Numbered from the stretch's first letter, positions 6,802-23,763 are shown. The stretch: 63,785 nucleotides of DNA from a virus (IMGVR_UViG_3300032157_000216:1-63785), one strand, 5' to 3'. Numbers and translations are program-made. Notes: generated by a model not told the origin, from the letters alone.

Positions 6802-6867
6802 CAGAATGCAGTTTTTTACGTTTGATTTTCAGTCAAATTTTATGTAATTTTTGCAGGATGCATTCTT
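6802..6867 (-). ncRNA. CAGCAA-scaffold RNA copy E1, carrying a Phe(GAA) anticodon stem-loop
   Basis: AAG-AATGCATC-CTGCAA...TTTGA-CTGAAAA-TCAAA...TGCATTCTG. Confidence 0.75.
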
Positions 6868-6878
6868 TAGAATGAAAA

Positions 6879-6961
6879 CAGAATTCTTGTAACAAGCCCT
6901 GTTACAGGCCTGCTTGGAGTTGAACCAAGTTTATCCATAGGATGTTGCTGGAAGAATTCTT
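6879..6961 (-). ncRNA. CAGCAA-scaffold RNA copy E2, carrying a T-arm plus hairpin
   Basis: AAG-AATTCTTC-CAGCAA...CTTGG-TTCAACT-CCAAG...GAATTCTG. Confidence 0.75.
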
Positions 6962-6967
6962 TAAATT

Positions 6968-7044
6968 TGGTACCCCACCTCGGATTCGAACCGAGAACCA
7001 ACAGATTTTAAGTCTGTCCGCACTACCAATTAGCGTAGCAGGGC
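6968..7044 (-). tRNA. tRNA-Leu(TAA), short variable loop
   Basis: ACAGA-CTTAAAA-TCTGT; 5-nt variable loop; CCA. Confidence 0.9.
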
Positions 7045-7053
7045 AAAATAAGT

Positions 7054-7224
7054 GTCGAATATATGATTTATTTTAGGTAGCTCCTGCAGTGGACTTTTAT
7101 CTACCCTCACATGGTGTTCCCTTGATTAAGATGCCCTTAATATGTTCGGGAGTTTAAATCAGCCACGACAGAAATTTCCATCGAGTTTAAATTGACGTCA
7201 TCTCGATCTTTCCATATATTCAAC
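7054..7224 (-). ncRNA. Putative structured ncRNA of unknown family
   Basis: Terminal stem GTTGAATATATG / CATATATTCGAC with internal hairpins; no ORF. Confidence 0.5.
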
Positions 7225-7233
7225 TGGAAACTG

Positions 7234-7869
7234 TTATACTCTACCTTTTTTCCAGCCAGGTAAAATATCTATATCTTTCTTTACTTTCTTATTTATAATA
7301 CCATCTGTAATCCACATAGTACCATATTGTGAACTTTTCTCTCCACAACTTTGTGGACGCGGACCGGACATTTTCTTTTTTGTTTCATCAGTATGTTTCT
7401 TACCTTTAAAACTTGGTTCCCACCAAATGCCGCCGTGTTCCTTATATTTTTCTTTAAATACCTCGACACCTTTTTTATTTTGATTCTGCATTCTTTCTTT
7501 ATACGTCTTCAGTTCATCTCCCTCTAGAGATTTAACCTTATCGCTGAATGCCTTACCACCCAGTGTTGCTCCGCGAACACTATCTTCACGAACAAAACCT
7601 CCACGACCTCCCGGCTTTAAGTTGTAAACTTCCGGGTTTTTAAGAAACTCCTCATTTACAACAACTCTTTCTTTTAAAAGAGCAGATTCATAATCATCAA
7701 AATATTCTAAAATCTCTTTTTTAAAATTCTCTCTACCATATTTCTTAATAGCGTATCGAATTCTTTTTCCAGAACCCAGATACATATTATCTGTGGTTTT
7801 TGCTTTATGGATCCCAATATAAATCTTATTATTAATAAGATTGGTAGTTTTATACAAGTAAATAATCAT
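7234..7869 (-). CDS. GIY-YIG free-standing homing endonuclease (Seg-like, NUMOD3-type repeat)
   Basis: IYLYKTTNLINNKIYIG, YLGSG, YN and KGKKHTDETKKKMS. Confidence 0.9.
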   Translation of the reverse strand: MIIYLYKTTNLINNKIYIGIHKAKTTDNMYLGSGKRIRYAIKKYGRENFKKEILEYFDDYESALLKERVVVNEEFLKNPEVYNLKPGGRGGFVREDSVRGATLGGKAFSDKVKSLEGDELKTYKERMQNQNKKGVEVFKEKYKEHGGIWWEPSFKGKKHTDETKKKMSGPRPQSCGEKSSQYGTMWITDGIINKKVKKDIDILPGWKKGRV

Positions 7870-7894
7870 ACTTGTATTTATCTTTTTCCCAATG

Positions 7895-7983
7895 AGGCCA
7901 GGGTTGGATTCAAACCAACGATGTATACCAAGGTAGTTTCCCGCTTTGCAGACGAGTGCATTCGATCGCTTTGCTACCTGGCC
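7895..7983 (-). tRNA. tRNA-Cys(GCA) with long variable arm, CCA not encoded
   Basis: GGCCAGG/CCTGGCC acceptor, T73, CTCGT-CTGCAAA-GCGGG, about 20-nt variable region. Confidence 0.8.
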
Positions 7984-7985
7984 AT

Positions 7986-8366
7986 TTACTCTACTTCTTC
8001 ACCCAATTCCTCTTTCAGTTTCTTAAACATCTTGAGTTTGGACTCTCTATCTTTCAATTCTTTCTTCATCTTACGTGTAAGAGCTGCATCTTCACGCTTT
8101 TTCTTTTCTTCTGCTTCTCTTATTTCTTCTGCTTTCGAAATAGCAAGATAATCTTTAATTGTCTTGGCAACAAATGCTTTTGTATCAACTGGACGTTCTA
8201 AAAGTTGAAAATTCAACTTCTGAGAAGCAAATTTTAAAGTTCTGAATTCTTCATCAGATACTTCTTCCCAATCTGTAATTGATTCGACGATCTTATGATA
8301 GTCATCATCGTATTCTCCGGAGCAGTAAAACTCACGCGAGATAATAATTGCTATCTTATGTGACAT
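7986..8366 (-). CDS. Hypothetical protein with coiled-coil C terminus
   Basis: 126 aa ORF with an AGGAG RBS. Confidence 0.75.
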   Translation of the reverse strand: MSHKIAIIISREFYCSGEYDDDYHKIVESITDWEEVSDEEFRTLKFASQKLNFQLLERPVDTKAFVAKTIKDYLAISKAEEIREAEEKKKREDAALTRKMKKELKDRESKLKMFKKLKEELGEEVE

Positions 8367-8385
8367 ACTATCTCCTTAATAAAGT

Positions 8386-8449
8386 CAGAGTGCGCTTTCT
8401 TTTCAAGATAATGGTTTGAAATTTTTAATTGTTTGCGGTAAACACTCTT
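8386..8449 (-). ncRNA. CAGCAA-scaffold RNA copy E3, carrying a degenerate hairpin
   Basis: AAG-AGTGTTTA-CCGCAA...TTTCAA-ACCATTATC-TTGAAA...GCACTCTG. Confidence 0.7.
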
Positions 8450-8457
8450 TAGAAACT

Positions 8458-8541
8458 TGGTGGAGATAGCTGGAATCGAACCAACCGGGCGTTAACAGGT
8501 GATTTACAGTCACCCCCTGCTCCATACAGGTCTACATCTCC
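8458..8541 (-). tRNA. tRNA-Tyr(GTA)
   Basis: GGTGA-CTGTAAA-TCACC; extended variable region; CCA. Confidence 0.85.
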
Positions 8542-8547
8542 AAATTC

Positions 8548-8678
8548 AGTCGGTAATACGTTACCAGCGTGGAAAAGCATACAACTTATTCCAATAATAG
8601 GGCAATGGCTACACGTGGAATTGACCATTGCGTGTCCACTCGGCCGGAATTACTTCCGCGCATTCATCCACGACGACT
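8548..8678 (-). ncRNA. Putative structured ncRNA abutting the tRNA-Lys 3' end
   Basis: Nested stems AGTCG/CGACT, CGTGGA/TCCACG, CGGAA-GTAA-TTCCG and GCAATGG/CCATTGC. Confidence 0.55.
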
Positions 8679-8752
8679 TGGTAGGGCTGCAAGGAATCAA
8701 ACCTTGGTAGATCGGTTAAAAGCCGACTATTCTATCATTGAATTACAACCCC
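8679..8752 (-). tRNA. tRNA-Lys(TTT)
   Basis: GTCGG-CTTTTAA-CCGAT; CCA. Confidence 0.9.
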
Positions 8753-8922
8753 GAAACTGACATTCTACGTTTGATTTCAATGTGAATATCATAATATGTC
8801 ATTCCCATTTCCTTCAAGTAGGAAAACTCATCAACTGCTTCATAATGATTCCACTTCACAAACTCTTCATAGAGTTTAAGTAGTTCATCACCCGATAACT
8901 CTCTTAGTTCTTTGTTTGTCAT
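8743..8922 (-). CDS. Small hypothetical protein
   Basis: Start moved to MTNKEL because the longer ORF runs through tRNA-Ser. Confidence 0.55.
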   Translation of the reverse strand: MTNKELRELSGDELLKLYEEFVKWNHYEAVDEFSYLKEMGMTYYDIHIEIKRRMSVSGL

Positions 8923-8935
8923 TATTACTTTTATT

Positions 8936-9026
8936 TGGCGGATGACCGGGGGGTCGAACCCCGAAACCTGTTCATCACAAGTCGACAGTTTAGCAAACTG
9001 CTCCAATACCATTATGGGAGTCATCC
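8936..9026 (-). tRNA. tRNA-Ser(GCT)
   Basis: GCAGT-TTGCTAA-ACTGT; long variable arm; G73; CCA. Confidence 0.9.
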
Positions 9027-9034
9027 AAAATTCT

Positions 9035-9167
9035 TGCTGCCCTAAGGAGGAATCGAACCTCGAGTGTATCAGACTCTGAACCTTACCTTGTACCTACTAA
9101 GTGTTCAGTACTCTTTCCCTGATACGTACGAAATACGTACTAACCCTTCAGCGGTTCACATGGGGCA
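9035..9167 (-). ncRNA. Enlarged tRNA-like RNA without a normal anticodon loop
   Basis: Acceptor-like ends, T-arm GAGG-TTCGATT-CCTC, extra hairpin, long interrupted central arm. Confidence 0.6.
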
Positions 9168-9173
9168 TATGTA

Positions 9174-9491
9174 TTATAACTTGTCCGGGTACTTAGAGTC
9201 AAGTACATCAACCGCATGAAACGGACTTGTTCCAATGTCAAGGACTTGAATATTTATAAATCCATTCTCCTCTGTGATCAAACTGTCCTTCGAATCGATT
9301 GATCCACGATACTTGTCATGACCTTTCTTATTCATAAGATCGCCTGTAGCAGGATCAATCGATCCCCATTCAGTCTTGACATTACCCATTGGTTCAACAG
9401 CATAGGTTTTTCCTGTACGAGTAGAATGAATGATGAAACGTCCCGTCTCATCTGTGTTCGTTAAGAATTTTTGTCTTACGTCTTGTCTCAT
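9174..9491 (-). CDS. Hypothetical protein
   Basis: 105 aa ORF with a GAAGGGA RBS. Confidence 0.75.
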   Translation of the reverse strand: MRQDVRQKFLTNTDETGRFIIHSTRTGKTYAVEPMGNVKTEWGSIDPATGDLMNKKGHDKYRGSIDSKDSLITEENGFINIQVLDIGTSPFHAVDVLDSKYPDKL

Positions 9492-9516
9492 ACCATTTCC
9501 CTTCTGTTAAAATCCC

Positions 9517-9614
9517 TGTTCTACAGGTCTTGAACCTGTTACAACGAAGCTTATCGTTACACTTACTTCGCATTAGCTGCATTCTCTGGGGGTAACGCTC
9601 CAGCAAGCAGAACA
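9517..9614 (-). ncRNA. tRNA-like RNA
   Basis: TGTTCT/AGAACA terminal stem, T-arm ACAGG-TTCAAGA-CCTGT and two non-canonical arms. Confidence 0.5.
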
Positions 9615-9618
9615 TTTC

Positions 9619-9695
9619 TGGCAAGGCCTCTCGGACTCGAACCGAGGCATTCATGGCTCAGAACCATGCCGCTCTTCCCCTTAAGCTACGACCCA
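9619..9695 (-). tRNA. tRNA-Gln(CTG), weak acceptor stem
   Basis: CATGG-TTCTGAG-CCATG; G73; CCA. Confidence 0.75.
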
Positions 9696-9701
9696 ATAAA
9701 C

Positions 9702-9777
9702 TGGAGCTCCTAGGGGGAATCGAACCCCTCCTTTACACCTTGAAAGGGTGTCGTCCTCACCAATAGACGATAGAAGC
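9702..9777 (-). tRNA. tRNA-Glu(TTC)
   Basis: ACACC-CTTTCAA-GGTGT; CCA. Confidence 0.9.
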
Positions 9778-9784
9778 ATATACA

Positions 9785-10537
9785 CTAATCTAGACTTCCT
9801 GTAAAGTCCTTCGGAACAAAATGTAGAAAGACTCCTAAAGCACTTTCAAATGAATTAGGCATTGGATCTCTCCAATGTGGATCACGGGTTCCTGAATACA
9901 ACACTGCATCACCTGCGTCAAGTTCAACTCGATTTACTATCTGTTCACGTTCGATAAACAATGGCCATTCTCTTAATGAAATATTTGGTTTACCTTGTAG
10001 CATCATTGAGATATTATATTCACATTGTGGTCGATCAGTATGCTTAGGTAATACAGCACCAACCACATAAGCTGCGGTGAATGCATAACTTGCCTTGATA
10101 GGTTTATCTACGATATAATTTATCATCGTTTCAACATTCTGATGAATCAATCTCATCAACGGTAAGTTATGAACCCACAATCGTTTAGATATATGTCCAA
10201 ATTTGTGTAATTCCGGTTTTAACCAAAAATGATGAGCCATCACAGTTTCAGCATACTCTTTAGTTATCAACTGTGGTATCCTTACCCAACCTTGATTTCT
10301 CATCTGTTCGCGTAACTCTTCCCATGAAAGTCGTCCTTCGGGATTTTGATGCCTGAGGATAAATTCTAATTTCCCTTCCTCAAATGGGGAAGGATACCAT
10401 CCTTGGTAATAAGAATCATAAATCCAAATAATTGGTTTAATTAAGGAATCACTAATGGCCTGGTAATCAACACGATGTGCATTTTTGACGTCGAGTGGAA
10501 CATCATCAGATGTCTGAATTATGTATGTACTCATCAT
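9785..10537 (-). CDS. 2OG-Fe(II) oxygenase
   Basis: LPKHTDRPQCEY, GDAVLYSG, PHWR and FLHF; start placed 5 nt after GATAAATA. Confidence 0.8.
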   Translation of the reverse strand: MMSTYIIQTSDDVPLDVKNAHRVDYQAISDSLIKPIIWIYDSYYQGWYPSPFEEGKLEFILRHQNPEGRLSWEELREQMRNQGWVRIPQLITKEYAETVMAHHFWLKPELHKFGHISKRLWVHNLPLMRLIHQNVETMINYIVDKPIKASYAFTAAYVVGAVLPKHTDRPQCEYNISMMLQGKPNISLREWPLFIEREQIVNRVELDAGDAVLYSGTRDPHWRDPMPNSFESALGVFLHFVPKDFTGSLD

Positions 10538-10551
10538 AATTCTATTTATCA

Positions 10552-10623
10552 TGGCAAGGGCGGTGAGAATCTAACTCACTCCGACAAGGTTCAAAGCCTT
10601 GCGTCGCTACAAGCGTCACCCCA
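10552..10623 (-). tRNA. tRNA-Gln(TTG), compact non-canonical fold
   Basis: GCAAGG-CTTTGAA-CCTTGT 6-bp stem; 3-nt D loop; CCA. Confidence 0.7.
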
Positions 10624-10629
10624 ATTGTT

Positions 10630-10707
10630 TGGTATTCCCATCGGGATTTGAACCCGACTTTCCACCTTGAGAGGGTAGCGTCCTAAATGCCACTAGACGA
10701 TGGGAAT
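10630..10707 (-). tRNA. tRNA-Glu(CTC)
   Basis: CTACC-CTCTCAA-GGTGG; CCA. Confidence 0.9.
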
Positions 10708-10711
10708 GTAA

Positions 10712-10784
10712 TGGACCCTCGTGAAGGACTCGAACCTTCGTAAGTCGATTTCGTAGACCGACCACCAAATCCATTGGACGAGAG
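10712..10784 (-). tRNA. tRNA-Arg(ACG), compact non-canonical fold
   Basis: GTCGGT-CTACGAA-ATCGAC 6-bp stem; no acceptor-D linker; CCA. Confidence 0.7.
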
Positions 10785-11031
10785 ATTATTCGTTATAATG
10801 TCTGCAGAGATTTCTTCTCTGCATCATAAATTCTCTTTCAAGGCGTTCGACATCTCCATCATTTTGTGGATTGCCGGAAGTGATATATCTTTCCAAATCA
10901 TTTCTTATGATCGGATCATTAAACACACTTTTAAAAAATTCAATTATACTTTTCAACATATAAATCTCCTCAGTGTTTATACTGAGTATTTACCGATTTA
11001 CATGCTGCACTGCAACAAAATAGGCAAATTT

Positions 11032-11105
11032 TGGTGATGAGTACAAGAATCGAACTTGTGAATCTACCTTATGAGAGTAGCGTTATACCACTTAACTAAA
11101 TCATC
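11032..11105 (-). tRNA. tRNA(CAT), Met or Ile2
   Basis: CTACT-CTCATAA-GGTAG; CCA. Confidence 0.85.
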
Positions 11106-11111
11106 AATGTT

Positions 11112-11186
11112 TGGAGCGGGATGCGAGGATCGAACTCGCAACTAAACCTTGGCAAGGTCTCGTGTTACCACTAGCACCAATCCCGC
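11112..11186 (-). tRNA. tRNA-Gly(GCC)
   Basis: AGACC-TTGCCAA-GGTTT; GCG acceptor; T73; CCA. Confidence 0.95.
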
Positions 11187-11197
11187 AATGTTCTCTA

Positions 11198-11226
11198 ACT
11201 ATACGACTTATATAGACACATGTCAA
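11198..11226 (-). promoter_or_regulatory. Sigma70-type promoter directly upstream of tRNA-Gly
   Basis: TTGACA-17 nt-TATAGT. Confidence 0.75.
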
Positions 11227-11232
11227 CTGATT

Positions 11233-11763
11233 TTAAATCTTTACAAACTGTTTATCTTCTTCTAATAAAATTGATTGATAATAATCACACTCGTGACCAT
11301 ATGTAATTAAATTCCTTTGTCTAAGAATACCATAAATCTTATCCCATGGTTCCCTGAACGCAAGTTTTAATACAAGCCTATCGCGTGGTTCAGGTTCGAC
11401 ACTATGAATCTTTGAACCAACATCAATCAAAGCACATTCATATGCATATGAACATCCATTTATACGAATGGTGGGCATCCAATCATCTATTAGATTGATA
11501 TTGATACCAACTATTCTATCTATGTCAATATGTTCCGGTAATCTTGTATTCTTATATTGAAATGAAAATCTAGGTAATACATTTAATCCATATAAACCCA
11601 TATCTTGTAAAACAGGATTAACTAATTCCTTACCACCGAATAATTTTAGCCAATAATGTATTTCGCTACCCGAAGTTTGATGATGACGGGCTTTTAGAAA
11701 ATTCTTAAAGAAATATTCTCTTAATATTTGTTTATTGGCGTAATAATTTATGAAACAAAACAT
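11233..11763 (-). CDS. Hypothetical protein, DSBH/2OG-Fe(II)-like
   Basis: LPEHID...IHSV...RLVLK. Confidence 0.55.
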   Translation of the reverse strand: MFCFINYYANKQILREYFFKNFLKARHHQTSGSEIHYWLKLFGGKELVNPVLQDMGLYGLNVLPRFSFQYKNTRLPEHIDIDRIVGININLIDDWMPTIRINGCSYAYECALIDVGSKIHSVEPEPRDRLVLKLAFREPWDKIYGILRQRNLITYGHECDYYQSILLEEDKQFVKI

Positions 11764-12208
11764 CACTAATCTCTTCAAATGTCTTATCAAAGACACTTAT
11801 TTTAAATAATAACCTGTCAGATGAAACATTCAATACAGCATGTTCTACCTGAGTGTTTAATAAACCTGTTTTATAATAACAATCAAATTCTCTAAAATTT
11901 ATAACATCTAAATTATCTGATAAAAGAAAATTAAAACTACAAAGTGTTCCTCTATCTTTATGAAAACCTAGTGAAAATCCTGGCCTCTGAATATAAAATC
12001 TTGGTCTACAGTCTTTCAAATCAAATAATTTTTGAAAATGATCAGATAGTTCTTGAGCATATCCTGTATTGACTCTTTTTATTGCCCAACCATCAAACAC
12101 ATCGCCATTGAGAGGATCGACAAAAGGTTCATAACCTTCCATATCAGACGCTTGAGTTAATAATAACTCTTTATCAAAATCAAAATCAAATTCAATAATT
12201 GGCAACAT
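11732..12208 (-). CDS. Hypothetical protein, DSBH/2OG-Fe(II)-like, paralogue of its neighbour
   Basis: LGFHKD...EHAV...RLLFK. Confidence 0.55.
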   Translation of the reverse strand: MLPIIEFDFDFDKELLLTQASDMEGYEPFVDPLNGDVFDGWAIKRVNTGYAQELSDHFQKLFDLKDCRPRFYIQRPGFSLGFHKDRGTLCSFNFLLSDNLDVINFREFDCYYKTGLLNTQVEHAVLNVSSDRLLFKISVFDKTFEEISDVLFHKLLRQ

Positions 12209-12220
12209 ATGATATTTATC

Positions 12221-12290
12221 TGGAGGTAAGTAAGGATCGCGAATCCTCTCGCCGGGTGCGACCCAGCTCGTCCGCTGTCAACGACTTACC
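12221..12290 (-). ncRNA. Non-canonical tRNA-like RNA (nominal anticodon CGC)
   Basis: GGTAAGT/ACTTACC acceptor, mini D arm, GCTGG-GTCGCAC-CCGGC, T-loop TTCGCGA, TCCA end; lacks G3:U70. Confidence 0.55.
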
Positions 12291-12296
12291 ATAATA

Positions 12297-12389
12297 TGGC
12301 GGGTGAAGGGTCGTGTCGATCGCCTACCGGCTCATCACCGATACACTAGTTTTCAAGACTAAGACTGGGGCCGCCCAGCATCATCACCC
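12297..12389 (-). tRNA. tRNA-Ser(TGA) with 8/4-type, tRNA-Sec-like body
   Basis: 8-bp acceptor, D arm GCTGGG-CGGC-CCCAGT, TTAGT-CTTGAAA-ACTAG, long V arm, bulged 4-bp T stem, G73, CCA. Confidence 0.75.
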
Positions 12390-12445
12390 ATAAAAAGGAA
12401 GATCATAAAGCCATGCGACATCACGGCGCCTCTATGACCTATTAT

Positions 12446-12522
12446 TGGTACCTGGATAGAGAATCGAACTCTACTAATCCCATTTGTAAGAAGGGTGGCT
12501 TCACCAGCTGCACTCTCCAGGC
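12446..12522 (-). tRNA. tRNA-Val(TAC)
   Basis: Loop CTTACAA; CCA. Confidence 0.85.
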
Positions 12523-12532
12523 ATTGTTTGTT

Positions 12533-12602
12533 TACGCATTGCAGGATTCGAACCTGCGTCCCCACCGGGTCTGGTGGCGTTCTACCTTTGAACTAAATCC
12601 GT
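12533..12602 (-). ncRNA. tRNA-like RNA with a 6-nt loop in place of the anticodon loop
   Basis: Canonical D and T arms; CCACC-AGACCC-GGTGG; no CCA. Confidence 0.6.
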
Positions 12603-12684
12603 CTCTATATAAGACTGTCCCATACTATCAGGCGTGGAAGTGATACCTTCTCGCAGAGGGGAATATTAACACAGTCTTAGTGAA

Positions 12685-12760
12685 TGGTACCGATGACTGG
12701 GTTTGAACCAGCGACGCACAACTTTTCAAGCTGCCGCTCTACCAACTGAGCTACATCGGC
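12685..12760 (-). tRNA. tRNA-Phe(GAA)
   Basis: GCAGC-TTGAAAA-GTTGT; CCA. Confidence 0.95.
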
Positions 12761-12768
12761 ATAAATTT

Positions 12769-12845
12769 TGGTGGACACATGAGGGAATCGAACCCTCGAC
12801 ATCCTACTTGCAAGGCAGGCGTTCTCCCAACTGAACTAATGGCCC
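12769..12845 (-). tRNA. tRNA-Ala(TGC)
   Basis: CCTGC-CTTGCAA-GTAGG; G3:U70; CCA. Confidence 0.9.
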
Positions 12846-12995
12846 ATATCTAAAAAATCTACTAACTATTGCCACCTGTCCCCGGATCTATAATAATCGT
12901 CCCCGGGTTTGGACTTACACCGTGCTAACAGGCTATTTATCGGCAGAACTTTAACCATTAACCTGAGCTATAGTAGCAGACCCAGCGCCTGGTGG

Positions 12996-13559: not shown

Positions 13560-13608
13560 TGTCTTAACAAGAGGAGATTCTCGATATAGTAAACTCTGAC
13601 ATTAAATG

Positions 13609-14181: not shown

Positions 14182-14188
14182 AGGCAAA

Positions 14189-17052: not shown

Positions 17053-17079
17053 ACTGCTATTTATCAGTATTTTATTGTT

Positions 17080-17155
17080 TGGACGCTCGGGTGAGAATTT
17101 AACTCACACAATACCGTTTTGCAGACGGCCCCGTTAAACATTCCGGCACCGAGCG
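17080..17155 (-). tRNA. tRNA-Cys(GCA)
   Basis: GCCGT-CTGCAAA-ACGGT; T73; CCA. Confidence 0.85.
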
Positions 17156-17161
17156 ATTAAT

Positions 17162-17235
17162 TGGGGTGAGGGTGGGTTACGATCCCACGCCCGTCGTTTC
17201 ACAGACGACAATTCTGCCATTAAACTAACCTCACC
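17162..17235 (-). tRNA. tRNA-His(GTG)
   Basis: GTCGT-CTGTGAA-ACGAC; G-1:C73; CCA. Confidence 0.9.
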
Positions 17236-17242
17236 ATAATCT

Positions 17243-18016
17243 TTATTGATAATTTTCTGGTTGCATTATCCAGATATCATCTGTTAACCTTCTTGGATCT
17301 TCAAACCAACCATATGGCATCTTGAAATCTCCGTTAAGTCCCCAACCGGTTCCCCAAGAGTTTCTAACCCATACATATGGTTCTTTAACATCTCTTTCAT
17401 CATAACCAACTGCGGTTACAGCATGGCCGCCAACAATATAATCTTCGTCTGTTGGTAATCTAACCCATCCTGTTGTCGCAACTTCATCGCTCATAAAATA
17501 TTCAGGGACTGAGAATCCAAACACAACAGGTATTCTCAATGCCAATGCTGTCTTTATATCAGTGATGGTATCTAATCTTTGATAAGATCTAATCATCGGA
17601 GGTATAAGTTTAGCATTTTTATACGCTCTTGTCGACGGTTTCCTTGCAAATCTTTCAATGATGTATGGCCAAACTGCCTCAGTTGCTACGCCATACTTAC
17701 AAATACCTTTGATGACATCACGAATATATGCACCATCATCGTACTTTGTATTATTTTCTATTTTTCGAGCAGTATAATACGCCATCAACCTAGAATATTG
17801 AACACCTGTGCCCAATATTATTTCTAATGCTGTGGTTGCTGCATTTCCGGTGCAGGAACCTAACTGACCTTGATCTTCAACTTGATTATTTACACTCAAT
17901 GGAGCAATATAATCAGGAAGTATTACCGCTGAAGAGGCAGTAAAGAGCTTATCTCTATGATCTGCTACCTCCGGTTTCCATTTAAATACACGTGGTTTAA
18001 GCATGATGGCCTCCAT
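17243..18016 (-). CDS. Papain-family (C1A) cysteine peptidase
   Basis: DQGQLGSCTG, GGHAV and RNSWG..WG..G. Confidence 0.9.
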   Translation of the reverse strand: MEAIMLKPRVFKWKPEVADHRDKLFTASSAVILPDYIAPLSVNNQVEDQGQLGSCTGNAATTALEIILGTGVQYSRLMAYYTARKIENNTKYDDGAYIRDVIKGICKYGVATEAVWPYIIERFARKPSTRAYKNAKLIPPMIRSYQRLDTITDIKTALALRIPVVFGFSVPEYFMSDEVATTGWVRLPTDEDYIVGGHAVTAVGYDERDVKEPYVWVRNSWGTGWGLNGDFKMPYGWFEDPRRLTDDIWIMQPENYQ

Positions 18017-18052
18017 ATAAATTATTATTTATATGAATGACCTAAAATAAAA

Positions 18053-18156
18053 CAGGTTGTTGTTGCTAACCCGGGACTCGAACCCACGCAACACCCCCAG
18101 CGGGACAGGCACGAAAAGTTTTGGCTCGTATATTTTTGTTTGCTGTAATCAACCTT
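18053..18156 (-). ncRNA. CAGCAA-scaffold RNA copy E4, carrying hairpins and a T-loop module
   Basis: AAG-GTTGATTA-CAGCAA...TGTTGC-GT-GGG-TTCGAGT-CCC...GCAACA-A-CAACCTG. Confidence 0.7.
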
Positions 18157-18167
18157 CAGAAACTAAA

Positions 18168-18287
18168 CAGGATACCTTTTTAGATAGGCTATCAACCTAT
18201 TGCCAAACCATTTGGCGTACAACGCAGAAGCGTAGTGTTGGAATTGAACCAACTAGTCTTATTAAGACTTTTGCTGCATGTATCCTT
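18168..18287 (-). ncRNA. CAGCAA-scaffold RNA copy E5, carrying a circularly permuted tRNA-Ile(GAT)
   Basis: Inside the AGGATAC/GTATCCT stem the order is T arm, acceptor 3' strand, TTCT, acceptor 5' strand, D arm, anticodon arm. Confidence 0.75.
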
Positions 18288-18292
18288 CAAAC

Positions 18293-18369
18293 TGGTACCC
18301 CCGGAGAGATTCGAACTCCCATCCAACACGTTCTAAGCGTGTCCGCACTACCAATTAGCGTACGGGGGC
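18293..18369 (-). tRNA. tRNA-Leu(TAG), short variable loop
   Basis: ACACG-CTTAGAA-CGTGT; CCA. Confidence 0.9.
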
Positions 18370-18534
18370 AAAATAATTTTCGGAATAGCGGCGATGTAAG
18401 GTCACATACCTAGTCACATAATCCTGTTGGTCTGTTGTGTGGCCACACAACATTCCACGTTTGTTTCGAAGTAGGTACCCGTCTACCAGCCCATGTGGAC
18501 CCAATAGAACATCCTCGTATACTTCAAATTATAT

Positions 18535-18610
18535 TGGCCCGACCTCTCTGTTACGATCAGAGTTCTCATGTTCTTCAGACATGCGTGAGGACCACCTTCA
18601 CCAAGGTCGG
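18535..18610 (-). tRNA. tRNA-Phe(GAA), divergent body
   Basis: CATGT-CTGAAGA-ACATG; T-loop ATCGTAA; G73; CCA. Confidence 0.8.
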
Positions 18611-18613
18611 ATA

Positions 18614-18687
18614 TGCATACCATCGAGGATTCGAACCCCGACTTTAAGGTTTTGGAGACCCAACGACTGCCGTTATCTTAATGGTAT
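18614..18687 (-). tRNA. tRNA-Trp(CCA), CCA end not encoded
   Basis: Loop CTCCAAA; ATACCAT/ATGGTAT acceptor; G73. Confidence 0.8.
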
Positions 18688-19311
18688 ATTTTTCTTTATA
18701 TAATCCCAACTCAACTGAGTTTTATCTAGGATCATAATCATTATTTTATTTTGTTCTATTACTCTTTCAATCTTTTCTTTATCTAAAATGCGAACATACG
18801 GATTCTTCGGATCTAGATATAGATCATAATCTATTAAATAAAAATCAGGATAATATCTTCTCTTTTGATTATTTAAATCAAAATAAAGCAATGGTGATGG
18901 TCTATTCCATCTAACTTTATTTTTATCTAAATCAATCGCTAATTCATATTCCCAGTTTGATTCAAATCTAACACCATTATACAAAATTCTTTTAGATGCT
19001 GTATAACGATTTTCCATCTTACTCTGCATTATAGACGATATTCTTTCTTTACATTCCAAAGTATGAGGAGTTCTATGTGGAATATATTCACCAATTCGAA
19101 TCTTTTCTTTAAAAGTTAAAGATCCCTGCATTATACTTTCATCAGTAAACTTAGTTTTACCTTTTTTAGATGATATTTTTCCCTTCATCCCATTCACATA
19201 ATTTCTATTTGGATTTATCGGGCAACACCTTTCGTGATTTCTATGACTATTCTCATTATGACATTCTTTATCACAAAATCTACATGATAACATTAACTTC
19301 TCCGGTAGCAC
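18673..19311 (-). CDS. Putative free-standing PD-(D/E)xK (TnsA-like) endonuclease
   Basis: N-terminal CxxC...H...C; FESNWE, YYPDFYL and LYLDPK. Confidence 0.75.
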   Translation of the reverse strand: MLPEKLMLSCRFCDKECHNENSHRNHERCCPINPNRNYVNGMKGKISSKKGKTKFTDESIMQGSLTFKEKIRIGEYIPHRTPHTLECKERISSIMQSKMENRYTASKRILYNGVRFESNWEYELAIDLDKNKVRWNRPSPLLYFDLNNQKRRYYPDFYLIDYDLYLDPKNPYVRILDKEKIERVIEQNKIMIMILDKTQLSWDYIKKNIPLR

Positions 19312-19421
19312 AGTTATTTATCATAGACCGCTGTGCTACCGAGATATATTTGAATCAGGCTTCACACCTAAATTGTCTGTTGCCTAGTGCATTATTCAGG
19401 CTTACAGATAACCCCTCGATT

Positions 19422-19497
19422 TGGCTCCGCAAGAACGATTCGAACGCTCCTCACTTGGTTAACAGCCAAGGGTACTCACCGAGAATACGATTGCGGA
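19422..19497 (-). tRNA. tRNA-Asn(GTT)
   Basis: CTTGG-CTGTTAA-CCAAG; G73; CCA. Confidence 0.9.
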
Positions 19498-19508
19498 ATT
19501 GAATTATC

Positions 19509-19574
19509 TGATGTATATAGGAATCGAACCTAGACTTGGCTTTAGTTCAGCTTTGCCGTCCACGGCATACATCA
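19509..19574 (-). ncRNA. Miniature tRNA-like RNA or tRNA pseudogene
   Basis: TGATGTAT/ATACATCA terminal stem and TAGG-TTCGATT-CCTA T arm; degenerate anticodon arm; no CCA. Confidence 0.5.
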
Positions 19575-19578
19575 TATT

Positions 19579-19652
19579 TGGTAGGTCTTGAAGGAGTCAA
19601 ACCTTCGTAGGCCGCCTATCAAGCAGCTATTCTATCATTGAATTAAAGACCC
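19579..19652 (-). tRNA. tRNA-Ile(GAT)
   Basis: GCTGC-TTGATAG-GCGGC; CCA. Confidence 0.9.
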
Positions 19653-19743
19653 AAATTGGTGCCGAGCCAGGACTTAATGCATTACAGAAAGGGCCTGGCC
19701 TACCGGCGATCTGCTGAATGCAGTAACCTTTCTTGCTAAATTT

Positions 19744-19819
19744 TGGAGCAGGTGGCGGGAATCGAACCCGCGCCTTTAGTTTGGAAGACTATGATGCTAC
19801 CATTAGACACCACACCTGC
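19744..19819 (-). tRNA. tRNA-Gly(TCC)
   Basis: Loop CTTCCAA; T73; CCA. Confidence 0.9.
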
Positions 19820-19945
19820 ATATTCGTGCCTGGACTTAGTAACGCGCCTAACAGACTTGCGCGACTTACGGACGAGTATACATGTACAAGGTCTACTCGT
19901 CTATCTTTTGTTCTTACCAAGCCCTTTCGAGCTTGGATTTTTCAT

Positions 19946-20974
19946 TTAGACCGGAGCACCGATCCAAATCATCAGGCCCATGCCCTTGGTAAGCTTACGG
20001 TTAACCGACGTCGATTGGACGTAGATTTCATAGTTACCATGCTGGCCCGGAGCAACCTTAACATCACCGGAATGCGGCAAGCCGAGAAGATCACGCGCAC
20101 CATATCCGCTGTAAACAGCACCAGTCGTCTTATCACGAACGGCAATCTGTTTATAGCCTTGAACAGTTTCGGTCTTCTTCAGTTCATAAAATGCACAACC
20201 CTTAACAAAGGTAACGCCTTGATCATTCACGAAGTCACGAATCTGGCAACCGTCCCACTGAGCATCCACTTCATACACATCCACCTGCTTAGAAATATCA
20301 ACCAGAGTGGCTTTTACTTCCTTCAGGCTGACATTACTCATGTCAGTATAGAATTTGTCAGTGCTCCTTACACCAGTAGCACGAGCTGCATAGAAGCCCT
20401 TGAACGCACTCTTGGTAGCAGCGGTAGAAACTTGAACACCACGTTCAGATTGTTCCCATTCCTGAATGTTACCATCAGGAATACCATATTGGGTAAGCGA
20501 ACGCTTATAACCCTTCGGTACACGGAACACAAACGTCCAACGATCAGTTGCTTGAAGTTCCTTGATCATCTTTGCAACGGATGAACCCGAATGCTTACAG
20601 CTTGCATTTTCCTCACCATCAGTGGTGGTAAACACAACAAAAGAAACATCAGGATCATCGGCATCCGGAACAGCTTTCAATTGCTCAACCAAGTCACCCA
20701 CCGCATCAAACAACGGAGTTCCGTGGCCCCTGGCGCTATAACTCGATTCGGTAATCGGCTTCAACGCAGTGACAGACGAATTCTTGATAACGGTACGTAC
20801 CTGATTGGTATTACCATATCCAAGTTCAACAACCGATACAATAGTATCGATGCCATGATTGGCTGCTTCCTCTTTGATCGACACAATGTTATCATTGTAG
20901 TCACGTGCGGCGTGACGTGCAATAGTAGCCATCGAGCCGGAGTGATCTCGTGCAAAACCAATGTAGTTCTTCAT
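19946..20974 (-). CDS. von Willebrand factor A (vWA) domain protein
   Basis: MIDAS motif DHSGSM, GTPLFDAV and TDGEEN; GAAAGG RBS. Confidence 0.85.
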   Translation of the reverse strand: MKNYIGFARDHSGSMATIARHAARDYNDNIVSIKEEAANHGIDTIVSVVELGYGNTNQVRTVIKNSSVTALKPITESSYSARGHGTPLFDAVGDLVEQLKAVPDADDPDVSFVVFTTTDGEENASCKHSGSSVAKMIKELQATDRWTFVFRVPKGYKRSLTQYGIPDGNIQEWEQSERGVQVSTAATKSAFKGFYAARATGVRSTDKFYTDMSNVSLKEVKATLVDISKQVDVYEVDAQWDGCQIRDFVNDQGVTFVKGCAFYELKKTETVQGYKQIAVRDKTTGAVYSGYGARDLLGLPHSGDVKVAPGQHGNYEIYVQSTSVNRKLTKGMGLMIWIGAPV

Positions 20975-21006
20975 GTATACCTTTCTGTGTAGTAATGTAC
21001 TCTCTT

Positions 21007-21035
21007 ACTATACAATAAGTACATCACTTTGTCAA
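21007..21035 (-). promoter_or_regulatory. Sigma70-type promoter of the vWA gene
   Basis: TTGACA-17 nt-TATAGT. Confidence 0.75.
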
Positions 21036-21547
21036 CTGGTGTCGCTAATTCGTTTTAATGCTTTTCGCCCCTTGCCTTTATTCTTAGCACCAAAAGTTGG
21101 TGTTTGTGAATGGCAATTTGGACACAATAATCTAACGTTAGATGGCAAATTATTATTTGAAAATCCATTGATATGATCTAAATGAAGACTCAATGGTTCT
21201 CCCGACCAATCTGATATTCCACATTTCATACATTTGTATCCAAATCTTTCAATTAAGACTTGTTTTATTGTCGAATTTTCTACTAATTCGCCTTTATCAA
21301 ATTTTTCTGATCTTCGTTTTTTACAAGTATCTATTCTTTGTTCTACATTCTTAGACACCAATAATGATTTTTCTGTCCTAATCTTATTAGTCTTTCTATT
21401 AGACTCTAATAGTCTAGAGGATTGTTTAGCCGAAATAGATTTCTTTAGTTTATCTTTATCTGTCCATGTTCTACTATTAGCACATTTTCTACAACAATAA
21501 ACCCCAGGCTTATTATGTAAATTTGGACATTTAGGACATTGTTTCAT
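21032..21547 (-). CDS. HNH homing endonuclease
   Basis: CMKCG, LHLDHING..NN...N.RLLCPNCH. Confidence 0.9.
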   Translation of the reverse strand: MKQCPKCPNLHNKPGVYCCRKCANSRTWTDKDKLKKSISAKQSSRLLESNRKTNKIRTEKSLLVSKNVEQRIDTCKKRRSEKFDKGELVENSTIKQVLIERFGYKCMKCGISDWSGEPLSLHLDHINGFSNNNLPSNVRLLCPNCHSQTPTFGAKNKGKGRKALKRISDTS

Positions 21548-21601
21548 AATCGAACTCCGATAAAAAGTTAATACACTATTTATCTAAGTTCGATTAACAT
21601 T

Positions 21602-21722
21602 TGGTGTCGCTGGACGGAGTCGAACGCGTCATCACTTCCTTATGATGGAATGATTTTGATTGCTGTATGTATCCTTGTCAGGATCACTTTCTTTAAGTGT
21701 GTTACCCTTACACTACAGCGAC
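21602..21722 (-). tRNA. tRNA(CAT) interrupted by a 46-nt permuted CAGCAA-scaffold copy (E6)
   Basis: Removing 21651-21696 gives a 75-nt cloverleaf with CTTCC-ATCATAA-GGAAG and CCA. Confidence 0.75.
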
Positions 21723-21824
21723 ATTATTGGAGCACCTATCTAATATAGTTAATAGAGACTAGGGAAGGAGCATTGATTGAGAGGGCCTATCTAATATAGA
21801 TTAGAGATCGATAGGCTCAAATTT

Positions 21825-21900
21825 TGGTGGGTTGCCAGGGAGTCAAACCCTGCTGAGTCTCCTTAAGAGGGAGGTACATCTGTCGCTCTGTCAACAACCC
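21825..21900 (-). tRNA. tRNA-Lys(CTT)
   Basis: CTCC-CTCTTAA-GGAG; CCA. Confidence 0.85.
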
Positions 21901-21904
21901 GAAA

Positions 21905-21979
21905 TGGTATCGCGTACGGGAATCGGACCCGTCTACACTGGTTGAAAGCCAGTTGACCTCACCAAAAGTCAAACGCGAT
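21905..21979 (-). tRNA. tRNA-Glu(TTC), second copy
   Basis: ACTGG-CTTTCAA-CCAGT; CCA. Confidence 0.85.
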
Positions 21980-21985
21980 GTAATG

Positions 21986-22060
21986 TGGATCACCCAGCTG
22001 GGTTCGAACCAGCATCCTGAGGGCCAAAACCTCATGTCCTACCAATTAGACGACAGGTGA
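21986..22060 (-). tRNA. tRNA-Gln(TTG), third copy
   Basis: TGAGG-TTTTGGC-CCTCA; CCA. Confidence 0.8.
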
Positions 22061-22067
22061 ATAAATT

Positions 22068-22141
22068 TGGTCCCTCCGCCAAGAATTGAACTTGGAATTA
22101 GCGATTATCGGTCGCTTAGTATACCATTTACTTAAAGAGGG
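22068..22141 (-). tRNA. tRNA-Ile(GAT), second copy (C33)
   Basis: AGCGA-CCGATAA-TCGCT; CCA. Confidence 0.85.
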
Positions 22142-22146
22142 AAATC

Positions 22147-22220
22147 TGGTCAGTCTAGCAAGAATCGAACTTGCGCTTCCACGCTCCGAAGGTGGGATGA
22201 TACCATTTCATCATAGACTG
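22147..22220 (-). tRNA. tRNA-Pro(CGG)
   Basis: Loop TTCGGAG; C1:G72; A73; CCA. Confidence 0.85.
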
Positions 22221-22322
22221 AAATAAAAACTGTTAGGTTCGACTTTCATCACATACCATCGTGTTATACTTACGTAGAGCGAACCGGGATAGTATCGACT
22301 TTATAATTACTCTAACAAAACT

Positions 22323-22396
22323 TGGTCAGGGTAGGTGGAATCGAACCACCGTCGTCCGGTTCCAGGCCGGGGAGTCTACCATTGATTTACACCCTG
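22323..22396 (-). tRNA. tRNA-Pro(TGG) (C33, A37)
   Basis: CCGG-CCTGGAA-CCGG; CCA. Confidence 0.85.
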
Positions 22397-22415
22397 AATA
22401 TAGATAAATATCATT

Positions 22416-23033
22416 ATGAACTTATCTGAAATACGATCACATCCTGATCAAAATCCAAAACTTAAAACTATCGACGTTATAAAACAAAATGAAAAAATAT
22501 ATGGCGATAAACTATTTGTTCATTTTAGTCGAATTGATAAACTTGGAATAAATCCAAATTATGGCTGGGAATTTACACCAGCTGGTCTCTATGCTAGATC
22601 AGTTGAAGAAGCACTTCATGATCTACAAAGTAATTATTTCTATGATCAATATAAATTTGCAACACTTCTAACATTCAGTTCATCTGCAAAAATACTCAAC
22701 CTTTCATCTACAAATCAAAATACATTAAACAATCTTATGAGATTAGCTTATGATTTCTATAAGAAAAAAACGAATATTACTGATAAAAATGCTAAACCAT
22801 TCTTGGATATGAATGTCAGAGAAACATGGCATAAAATTGCAGGAATCTTTATGGATCTCTGGGACAAAGATCAACGAAGTCCTTTCTACTGGAATGCAAT
22901 CGTTCGTAAATTAGGATATAATGTCTTAATGGATAATGACGGAATCATTCATGAAGATCACACCACTCAAGTTGTATTCTTAACACCAGACTCTTATAAA
23001 GTTATCACACAAGAAATAATTAGAAGAAAATAA
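22416..23033 (+). CDS. Hypothetical protein, antisense to the tRNA cluster
   Basis: 205 aa ORF starting 5 nt after GATAAATA. Confidence 0.7.
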   Translation: MNLSEIRSHPDQNPKLKTIDVIKQNEKIYGDKLFVHFSRIDKLGINPNYGWEFTPAGLYARSVEEALHDLQSNYFYDQYKFATLLTFSSSAKILNLSSTNQNTLNNLMRLAYDFYKKKTNITDKNAKPFLDMNVRETWHKIAGIFMDLWDKDQRSPFYWNAIVRKLGYNVLMDNDGIIHEDHTTQVVFLTPDSYKVITQEIIRRK

Positions 23034-23035
23034 AT

Positions 23036-23109
23036 TGGAGCCCCATGACCGAATCAAACGATCGTCCTCTGACTACAAAACAGTTATTCTATCACTGAAC
23101 TAATAGGGC
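23036..23109 (-). tRNA. tRNA-Thr(TGT)
   Basis: Loop TTTGTAG; CCA. Confidence 0.85.
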
Positions 23110-23115
23110 ATTATT

Positions 23116-23523
23116 CTAACACCGACCGAAAATGTCGGATTTTATTTCTTTTTCTAACATTCTCAATTTCGAATGTTTTGATAAAGCTTCTTTAACAATC
23201 GGAGTGTTCATTACAGTTTCATGAATTTCGTTATGTCTTTTTTTATTTTCTAATTCTAATGGAGTACCATACATAATCTCATCCCATGACATTCCAAATT
23301 CTTTTTCTACTATAACATTTGATTCAGACTCGGAGAAACCTAAATTACCTAATTCACCCAATCTTCTCAAACATTTTAATGATCGACTAAATGTAATGTT
23401 ACTTATATCGAGTTCTCTCCTTAATTCCATTAATTTCTGTAATTCTACATTATTCTCAATCTTTTTATGTAAAAAAATTACTCTCTTCCTTAATTTAAGA
23501 ATCTTCTTTTCTTTTCTTTGCAT
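23116..23523 (-). CDS. Hypothetical protein
   Basis: Start at MQRKEK preceded by GGAG. Confidence 0.6.
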   Translation of the reverse strand: MQRKEKKILKLRKRVIFLHKKIENNVELQKLMELRRELDISNITFSRSLKCLRRLGELGNLGFSESESNVIVEKEFGMSWDEIMYGTPLELENKKRHNEIHETVMNTPIVKEALSKHSKLRMLEKEIKSDIFGRC

Positions 23524-23560
23524 ACACTTCTCCGTATTGCAAATATTTAGCAAACTAAAA

Positions 23561-23617
23561 CAGAGTACACATTTGGCTTCATTTACAGTGAATTTTTGGA
23601 TTGCTGAAGGTACTCTT
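23561..23617 (-). ncRNA. CAGCAA-scaffold RNA copy E7, carrying a Tyr(GTA) anticodon stem-loop
   Basis: AAG-AGTACCTT-CAGCAA...TTCA-CTGTAAA-TGAA...GTACTCTG. Confidence 0.8.
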
Positions 23618-23623
23618 TAAACT

Positions 23624-23699
23624 TGGCGCCGCTGAAGGGAATCAAACCCTCCTAAATCCGCTAGACAGGCGGTTGCACTCATCAGAATGCGACAACGGC
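23624..23699 (-). tRNA. tRNA-Asp(GTC) (T37)
   Basis: CCGC-CTGTCTA-GCGG; G73; CCA. Confidence 0.85.
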
Positions 23700-23708
23700 A
23701 TGATAAAA

Positions 23709-23763
23709 CAGTGTTCTTATTTTCAATTAAAAGTTGAATTTTGAATTTGCTGAACGAACACTT
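23709..23763 (-). ncRNA. CAGCAA-scaffold RNA copy E8, carrying a Lys(TTT) anticodon stem-loop
   Basis: AAG-TGTTCGTT-CAGCAA...TTCAA-CTTTTAA-TTGAA...GAACACTG. Confidence 0.8.

Follow-up and report, generated by a model that had tools for sequence, protein, structure and literature searches.

Eight copies of a small RNA-like element, E1 to E8, are located in the tRNA array of the viral DNA stretch IMGVR_UViG_3300032157_000216 (positions 1 to 63785), which represents an entire virus record of IMG/VR (63,785 bases) and is called “the window” in the following. These copies belong to a family of predicted RNAs that is large, covarying, restricted almost only to viruses, and described neither in Rfam nor in the literature searched. 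Comparison of the copies established the architecture of these predicted RNAs: a base-specific “handle” that joins both ends, a swappable “cargo” made of tRNA parts, and a linkage to tRNA genes. They may be tRNA-linked modular tRNA mimics, with the handle serving in binding of a partner and the cargo as a decoy or adaptor, an interpretation to which an even probability is assigned. The predicted RNAs also resemble the Dictyostelid Class I RNA (RF01414), a similarity that was unexpected and is statistically non-trivial. This large family is unannotated in the records examined, including those of cultured Yersinia and Serratia phages, and since these phages carry it, it can be tested at the bench.

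The handle was recognized by the motif AAG-N8-CNGCAA, in which exactly 8 nucleotides (nt) separate the two conserved parts. It occurred 11 times in the window compared with 1.71 expected occurrences, and none of 100 shuffled sequences reached 11. Eight of these matches, all on the minus strand and inside the tRNA array, are the copies that had been proposed in an initial annotation of the window, and the sequences read agreed exactly with the coordinates and stems given there. In the other three matches (1060 to 1076, 28321 to 28337, and 32921 to 32937), the first two of which are within listed open reading frames (ORFs), the covariance model R1 described below finds no copies. A closing stem of 6 to 9 bp ending in CT-G was found by a script in E1, E2, E3, E4, E5, E7, and E8. 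These seven copies follow a common plan, composed of a covarying 7-bp closing stem (AAG...CUG), an adjoining UNCAGCAA strand, and a variable cargo enclosed by the stem, which begins at the AG of AAG and ends with CU followed by G. The minimum-free-energy folds of all seven include the closing stem, with folding z-scores between −1.4 and −2.4 for the short copies, −3.6 for E2, −4.5 for E5, and +0.83 for E4. The features of the array are as follows, with bit scores for R1 and RF01414 where they were obtained:

6638 to 24358, minus strand: tRNA array holding all eight copies, which are all on this strand.
6802 to 6867, minus strand: E1, short copy with stem AGAAUGCA/UGCAUUCU, CUGCAA, and hairpin UUUGA-CUGAAAA-UCAAA (anticodon-like GAA); R1 67.6 bits (training sequence), RF01414 25.3 bits.
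6879 to 6961, minus strand: E2, long copy with 9-bp stem AGAAUUCUU/AAGAAUUCU, CAGCAA, and a small hairpin; R1 31.4 bits.
Within 6879 to 6961, minus strand: cargo of E2, T arm CUUGG-UUCAACU-CCAAG and a hairpin with a loop containing CUGUAAC.
8386 to 8449, minus strand: E3, short copy with stem AGAGUGU/GCACUCU (one G-U pair), CCGCAA, and a hairpin with the 9-nt loop ACCAUUAUC; RF01414 23.1 bits.
18053 to 18156, minus strand: E4, long copy with 6-bp stem AGGUUG/CAACCU, CAGCAA, and the T-arm-like GGGUUCGAGUCCC in the cargo.
18168 to 18287, minus strand: E5, long copy with stem AGGAUAC/GUAUCCU enclosing a whole acceptor-closed tRNA body; R1 28.7 bits (untrained).
21602 to 21722, minus strand: E6 host gene, a tRNA-like RNA with open acceptor GUCGCUG/CAGCGAC, encoded ACCA, and the handle as an extra arm.
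21660 to 21690, minus strand: E6 handle, hairpin AUCCU-GACA-AGGAU followed by AC-AUA-CAGCAA.
23561 to 23617, minus strand: E7, short copy with stem AGAGUAC/GUACUCU, CAGCAA, and hairpin UUCA-CUGUAAA-UGAA (anticodon-like GUA); RF01414 31.3 bits.
23709 to 23763, minus strand: E8, short copy with stem AGUGUUC/GAACACU, CAGCAA, and hairpin UUCAA-CUUUUAA-UUGAA (anticodon-like UUU); RF01414 23.8 bits.

The initial annotation had stated that the stem pairs in every copy. This holds for the outer closing stem of seven copies, but in E6 the paired strands form an internal hairpin and not a closing stem. Its statement that the cargo is tRNA-derived in most copies agrees with T arms in E2, E4, and E5, with hairpins of 4 to 5 bp carrying 7-nt loops in E1 (CUGAAAA), E7 (CUGUAAA), and E8 (CUUUUAA), and with the hairpin with a 9-nt loop in E3. 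Neither ARAGORN nor the Rfam tRNA model (RF00005) called any of the copies E1 to E8 as a tRNA, and the acceptor is absent or closed in seven of the eight. A K-turn was considered for the 3-nt linker and dropped because no G-A comes after it.

The covariance model R1 was built from eight close short copies, so that divergent members could escape detection. In the window, it recovered the long copies E2 and E5 although these were not used for training, and it missed E4 and E6. The related contig L009, which was reached via the neighboring papain-like protease gene, contains seven motif matches compared with 1.48 expected and holds orthologs of E2, E3, E4, E6, E7, and E8. These have retained the cargo and differ in the stem. 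For instance, the stem AGAGUAC/GUACUCU of E7 is AGACUAC/GUAGUCU in its ortholog, and the strand AGUGUUC of E8 is AGAAUGC. The ortholog of E2 (L009:3988-4069) shows compensatory changes in the inner hairpin, the 9-nt loop of E3 is retained in its orthologs, and E4 corresponds to L009:9383-9497.

Searches with R1 gave 17 hits in four of five complete relatives and one to four hits per record in all of five further large viral records. Among the cultured phages, there were six hits in Yersinia phage fHe-Yen9-04, in which a script located at least 12 copies, and two in Serratia phage BF, and each of these hits falls into a gap of the tRNA array that has no annotation; no R1 hit was obtained in PA5oct, Vibrio phage 2.275.O, Sinorhizobium phage Phosso, or the relative G005. 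In the model-fitted alignment of 38 R1 hits from 14 sources, both sides change in all seven stem pairs, 99.6% of the cells are paired, and none of 500 shuffles matched this result. The proposed conserved handle on interchangeable tRNA modules turned out to be a real covarying family that behaves as claimed. A scan of the window with Rfam at gathering scores yielded tRNAs and no other family, and none of the elements was hit by an Rfam family at gathering level.

Two sequence patterns were used to estimate the spread of the family. Of the 50 matches of a strict 20-base pattern in viral contigs, 44 possess a stem that is paired completely. The pattern matched 69 times in the 596 Gb of prokaryote genome contigs, with four paired stems compared with about 1.4 expected by chance; these four were judged to be chance matches because none is near a tRNA, and the family is therefore not evident with this strict pattern in the prokaryote genomes. 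A second pattern matched at least 120 stretches of viral contigs, and 57 of the 81 matches examined had a stem of at least 7 bp. Pattern matches in three contigs of giant-virus metagenome-assembled genomes (L304, L306, and L335) have unpaired stems and were attributed to chance.

Among the matches listed for IMG/VR contigs, a script found 275 unique copies. Conservation at positions not imposed by the search included an A before the AG in 210 of the 275, a T after the CTG in 229, a U:A pair at stem position 5 in 223, and an A as the second base of CAGCAA in 257. Stem pairs 1, 2, and 5 remain A:U, G:C, and U:A, and free covariation is found in the others. The stem is flanked by an A before and a G after it, and the 5' strand is followed by N-U-N-CAGCAA; an A-rich run precedes the 3' strand in this collection, and U-rich sequence is found downstream. 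This pattern also bears on the possibility that the copies originated as tRNA pseudogenes in decay or as scars from recombination caused by homing endonucleases of the array. GIY-YIG and HNH endonuclease genes within the array and the tRNA-like cargo would agree with such an origin, but the compensatory stem changes, the handle motif retained in 275 copies from distant viruses, and a handle sequence foreign to ordinary tRNAs do not, and this origin is regarded as highly improbable.

Short copies, which are defined as those of up to 75 nt, account for 199 of the 275. An anticodon-like hairpin with at least 4 bp and a 7-nt loop of the form Y-U-NNN-R-N is present in 96 of them compared with 4.75 in shuffled interiors. 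The commonest triplets are UUU (31), GUA (8), UGA (8), GUU (6), UUC (5), and UGU (4), followed by about 20 others, and these counts are of unique sequences from related viruses and hence not independent. Copies with identical flanks differ only in the triplet, being UUU, UGU, GAU, or GUU in one case and GUA or GUG in another, while the U at loop position 2 (U33) and the two A residues after the triplet (A37-A38) are constant. Such a fast turnover of the triplet in otherwise constant copies would fit an arms race. The prominent triplets for Lys, Tyr, Asn, His, Thr, and Glu would fit the target tRNAs of known anticodon nucleases, which include those for Lys, Tyr, His, Asn, and Glu.

Alternatively, the short copies may be minimal adaptor tRNAs devoid of D and T arms, comparable to those of some nematode mitochondria, and would be charged after addition of CCA. 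A 7-bp terminal stem combined with a 5-bp anticodon-like arm with a 7-nt loop, U33, and a purine at position 37 would be suitable for this purpose. However, the ordinary tRNAs of the array that were read all encode their CCA, whereas the short copies end with G-UUUU; the stem opens with A:U and G:C; the invariant single-stranded CAGCAA is not needed by a tRNA; and half of the short copies are without the canonical loop. Minimal tRNAs are therefore a very improbable explanation.

The 76 long copies contain larger portions of a tRNA, with the T-loop motif GTTCRA in 40 of them. Several can be read as a T arm, an acceptor-like stem closed by a loop, UA, and a D arm, for example L107:8430-8544, L116:8060-8195, L109:7473-7589, positions 308920 to 309037 of the Yersinia phage, and a copy on contig L204. 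In the window, E5 combines an extra hairpin, a T arm, a closed acceptor-like hairpin, a D-like arm, and an anticodon-like arm with the loop UUGAUAG, and none of 200 shuffled sequences folds equally well. The predicted long cargo is a circularly permuted tRNA body with a loop-closed acceptor, and because its acceptor stem is closed by a loop, such a body could not be charged. The point of entry of the handle into the tRNA-like body varies among copies, and the handle is an internal arm in E6, which argues for the handle as a putative autonomous module.

A similar design is known from bacterial YrlA, a Y RNA mimicking tRNA (RF02553; Chen et al. 2014, PMC4201824). According to that paper, YrlA has two modules, a stem formed by the ends and a tRNA-like domain with a T arm, a closed acceptor-like stem, and a D arm in permuted order. 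This domain is also present in the viral long copies, and the long copy L204:10670-10747 aligned with positions 23 to 87 of the YrlA model, its tRNA-like domain, with 32.9 bits. In contrast to YrlA, there is no match of the viral handle to positions 1 to 22 and 88 to 114 of the model, which form its Ro60-binding part, and the short copies are without the tRNA-like domain. Most viral copies hold just an anticodon-like arm. The gathering score of YrlA is 69, the 32.9 bits are the best value for any element, and there was no gathering-level hit in the window or in six related loci. A TROVE/Ro60 gene (PF05731) was found in none of five genomes, being the window record and four complete relatives, while the control was found in 2 of 14 genomes. 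The analogy to Y RNAs drawn in the initial annotation proved apt with respect to the permuted body, and an involvement of Ro60 is not supported.

The permuted order could also mean that the long copies are split or permuted tRNA genes, with the handle being a processing helix that is cut and religated by RtcB or Rnl1 so that functional tRNAs result, and the short copies decayed remnants. The order T arm, acceptor, and D arm is indeed typical of circular permutation, the phages encode RtcB or Rnl1, and E6 is a CCA-ended tRNA with an insert-like handle. On the other side, the permuted copies have acceptor stems that are capped by short loops and have no CCA, and the 199 short copies among the 275 possess no tRNA body and are nevertheless the best conserved ones. 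The ligases do not follow the family either: RtcB is encoded in the records G001 to G005 and Rnl1 in Yersinia, Serratia, Vibrio, and Sinorhizobium phages, and since both are also found in records devoid of R1 hits, no useful correlation resulted from the neighboring-ligase idea. Nothing points to a splice signal, which had been considered as well. Permuted tRNA genes are therefore rated as a rather improbable explanation.

E6 is different from the other seven copies. It has no outer closing stem; the CUG arm is located 5' of the AAG arm, and the halves of the handle, bridged by a GAYA loop that connects the flanking A and G, do not form the ends of the RNA. In the host gene, the handle has the D arm on one side and the anticodon arm on the other. 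The gene also has the anticodon-like loop AUCAUAA and a bulge in the stem of its T arm, and neither ARAGORN nor the Rfam tRNA model calls it. Position L009:2662-2778 of the related contig retains this arrangement; there, the handle loop is GAUA, and the acceptor and D stems show changes that are compensatory or lead to G-U pairs. The single-base bulge in the T stem is conserved in both E6-type genes, and the anticodon-like triplet is CAU in the window and CAC in L009. This topology, the anticodon-loop nature of the short cargo, and the resemblance to RF01414 had been overlooked initially.

The linkage of the family to tRNA genes was analyzed in the window and in the 275 copies. E2, E3, E5, and E7 start 5 to 8 nt downstream of an encoded CCA end, and E1 and E4 start 10 to 11 nt downstream of the previous copy. 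In the collection, a CCA is located up to 16 nt upstream in 121 of the 275 copies and the end of a previous copy up to 20 nt upstream in 20, and one widespread copy is positioned immediately downstream of a transfer-messenger RNA (tmRNA) on contig L205.

A comparable arrangement exists in a giant virus. Contig L233 is one of the 32 contigs of an IMG/VR giant-virus bin that totals 413 kb, all four R1 copies of this bin being on L233. Its elements are organized in tandem units, each of which opens with a repeated block, continues with a tRNA whose CCA is not encoded and with the element, and closes with a run of 5 to 8 T. The elements start 2 to 3 nt past the discriminator base of the tRNA. A capsid gene of nucleocytoplasmic large DNA viruses (139.8 bits) is on a different contig of the bin. 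L233 itself encodes a short rhodopsin, a glutamate dehydrogenase, and a fused topoisomerase II of the eukaryote type, which is 33 to 38% identical to Top2 of fungi and protists; look-up of an ORF of this contig in a protein atlas gave no match. Binning of L233 could be wrong, but its own genes are of the eukaryotic-virus type. The repeated block is about 70 nt long, is conserved before each tRNA-element unit (L233:4190-4260 and 4420-4485, AGAGGGAGAGG...GAGUCCCUCCUAUCAAG), and may be a promoter or leader. In murid herpesvirus 68, tRNA-microRNA units release small RNAs by tRNA 3' processing. Like the elements of L233, these start a few bases after the tRNA and end at a T run, but they are another RNA in another class of virus with no common sequence, so that the analogy concerns biogenesis only.

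Location close to tRNAs would also be expected if the elements were cis-acting punctuation of a polycistronic tRNA transcript, as folding insulators or cleavage signals for tRNA maturation that are functionless once excised. Copies are located between tRNAs on the same strand, often 5 to 8 nt past the CCA, and U-rich flanks (GUUU) follow tRNA CCA ends and elements alike. Punctuation does not need a conserved anticodon-loop or tRNA-elbow cargo that is maintained in orthologs, nor a base-specific handle that is constant from enterobacterial phages to a giant virus, and it does not agree with tandem copies without a tRNA between them (E2-E1 and E5-E4) or with the internal arm of E6. It is considered unlikely, and like the other three alternatives, less likely than the decoy or adaptor function.

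If the elements are decoys or adaptors, the RNAs would be co-transcribed with the tRNAs or the tmRNA directly upstream, and their 5' end would be freed by 3'-end processing of the tRNA. The 3' end might be made by cleavage or by termination in the U tract, which is the run of 5 to 8 T in the giant virus. The handle would then bind a single conserved partner, for which a protein and an RNA site are both conceivable. Since enterobacterial phages, soil jumbo phages, and the giant virus share the same handle, this partner should be a universal cellular component or carried by each of the viruses. The cargo would occupy proteins that recognize tRNAs without joining translation, and might be a decoy or adaptor for readers of the anticodon loop or of the tRNA elbow, such as the anticodon nucleases of host defense and modification or repair enzymes. 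The adaptor logic would be that of the Y RNAs, which tether Ro60. Such a design, a constant handle with swappable anticodon arms or elbows, would be a general viral way to present non-chargeable tRNA parts, and it would bear on the question how phages with tRNA arrays withstand host defenses that target tRNAs.

Several observations weigh against this interpretation. No partner of the handle emerged: TROVE and RRM_1 were each found in none of five genomes, the ligases do not track the family, and no evident RNA-binding partner is encoded by the neighboring ORFs, which are those for homing endonucleases, 2OG-Fe(II) oxygenases, a papain-like protease, an asparagine synthase, a ferrochelatase-like protein, and unknowns. 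The canonical anticodon-like loop is missing in 103 of the 199 short copies, and E4 is thermodynamically unsupported with its z-score of +0.83. E6-type genes have an open acceptor and a CCA, so that one member or more might be charged like a tRNA and not act as a decoy. The collection of copies imposed AG, CNGCAA, and CTG, which means that these positions are ascertained and not measured, and the covariation alignment was fitted to the model.

The similarity to Class I RNA may connect the viral family to eukaryotes. Class I RNAs are linked to the multicellular development of amoebae, and to our knowledge, the question of their function has been without an answer for two decades. When the RF01414 model was used with a permissive threshold, it aligned in full length (positions 1 to 56) to every short copy scanned, giving 20 hits with 23.1 to 34.4 bits: four in the window (23.1 to 31.3 bits), ten in L009, L111, and L112 (25.7 to 34.4 bits), and six in L204, L209, L217, and L239. 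Nothing besides short copies was hit in about 140 kb. The gathering score of 41.5 bits was not reached, 34.4 bits being the value of the best viral copy, and the giant-virus copies gave no RF01414 match at an E value of up to 5. In the alignment, the stems are paired, CUU-CAGCAAU and the terminal CUG match, and one base is deleted.

Class I RNAs start with AAG, end with CUGU, and possess a short covarying stem that joins the ends, according to Kjellin et al. (2021, PMC7919456), who also give a size of about 60 nt, a GC content of 32 to 41%, and a variable interior. An 11-nt motif adjacent to the 5' stem strand ends with CAGCAA and has T3, C6, C9, A10, and A11 as near-invariant positions, and the same paper, which added candidates at 25 bits or more with its own model, states that Class I RNAs are found in no organism beyond Dictyostelia (PMC7919456). 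Measured against this description, the viral short copies have the AAG start, the end-joining stem, the CAGCAA motif, the CUGU end, the size, the GC content, and the variable interior. Conservation of the structure instead of the sequence of the stem is found in the viral family as covariation of all seven pairs, and the ends agree in the A of 210 and the T of 229 of the 275 copies, AG and CTG being imposed by the search. With respect to the 11-nt motif, the second base of CAGCAA is the A counted above, the rest being imposed, and a U two nt before CAGCAA is present in 177 of the 275.

There are also differences. From the stem to CAGCAA, the viral copies have one base less than the Rfam consensus of RF01414, the viral genes are linked to tRNAs while those of Class I RNAs are driven by a DUSE promoter about 60 nt upstream, and the viral cargo resembles tRNA, a property for which there is no report in Class I RNAs. 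The domain RRM_1 of the Rnp1A-type protein that binds Class I RNAs was the one found in none of the five viral genomes. The literature searches found no paper linking Class I RNAs to giant viruses or phages, nor did they reveal one that deals with mimics of anticodon arms in jumbo phages. Tentatively, and with the probability somewhat on the negative side, both groups may be one family, which would be ancient or spread horizontally by viruses between lineages infecting bacteria and lineages infecting eukaryotes, with the handle docking on a partner that bacteria and eukaryotes share. In that case, Class I RNAs would descend from, or would have seeded, tRNA-linked viral RNAs and would have a role in tRNA or translation biology. 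The viral cargo would then be the first concrete hint at the purpose of the Class I handle, and this would be a rare case of a small-RNA architecture common to phages, a giant virus, and a eukaryote.

Other small RNAs in phage tRNA clusters were compared to the family. T4 rnaC and rnaD (species 1 and 2 RNA) are likewise small non-tRNA RNAs inside a tRNA cluster, beside a GIY-YIG endonuclease gene and with tRNA-like 3' parts. They were rejected as members because they are without the handle, with R1 giving at most 10.8 bits across the T4 region.

The window encodes a tail sheath, a portal, a major head protein, and a tail fiber with an S74 chaperone. Its minus strand holds, from about 6.6 to 24.4 kb, about 30 tRNA genes that encode their CCA (ARAGORN and Rfam). 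Its completeness is 19% as estimated by CheckV. The major head protein is 80 to 99% identical to those of the best 80 of 243 related IMG/VR stretches, which include complete genomes of 347 to 385 kb, and among cultured phages, 79% identical to that of Pseudomonas phage PA5oct and 68% to those of Serratia phage BF, Yersinia phage fHe-Yen9-04, and Erwinia jumbo phages. The window is therefore assigned to an uncultured jumbo myophage of about 350 kb from soil, of which it is a fragment. Runs that contain window DNA are labeled as soil or groundwater metagenomes only, and for positions 17900 to 24300, DNA metagenome runs and no RNA runs were listed. Within the phage collection, no near DNA match was found for positions 6600 to 9100 of the window, for the E8 copy in distant mode, or for contig L295, and contig L285 matched cultured phages through tRNAs only.

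The tRNA array contains further features, those from the tRNA-like sequence to the 2OG-Fe(II) oxygenase genes being on the minus strand. A tRNA-like sequence at positions 23955 to 24035, called by neither ARAGORN nor Rfam, has a 5' GGGGGC, a 3' GCCUCCACCA, the T arm GGUUCGAUACC, and an aberrant middle, and the surrounding region from 23770 to 24180 is non-coding and appears structured. ARAGORN assigned a 2-base “anticodon” (tRNA-???) to two tRNAs at 12533 to 12602 and 24178 to 24262, the first of which has an Rfam tRNA score of 52 bits; both may have odd anticodon loops. GIY-YIG (SegE-like), endonuclease-like, and HNH genes are located among the tRNAs at 7234 to 7869, 18673 to 19311, and 21032 to 21547, comparable to the T4 tRNA cluster with segB. 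Two genes for 2OG-Fe(II) oxygenases are at 12996 to 13559 and 14367 to 15746, and an asparagine synthase, a papain-family protease, and a match to PHROG families annotated as ferrochelatase are at 2446 to 4107, 17243 to 18016, and 9785 to 10552. The oxygenase, asparagine synthase, protease, and ferrochelatase-like genes look like auxiliary or host-takeover genes. GOLLD RNA and permuted tmRNA gave no gathering-score match in the window, and the tRNA regions of complete relatives contain GOLLD RNAs scoring 212 and 199 bits as well as permuted tmRNAs scoring 122 and 82 bits, at L109:815-1233, L115:19065-19531, L115:10517-10908, and L108:9181-9384. A group I intron with 59 bits, at a gathering score of 50, is present in the tRNA region of the element-bearing viral contig L204 (3462 to 3704, minus strand).

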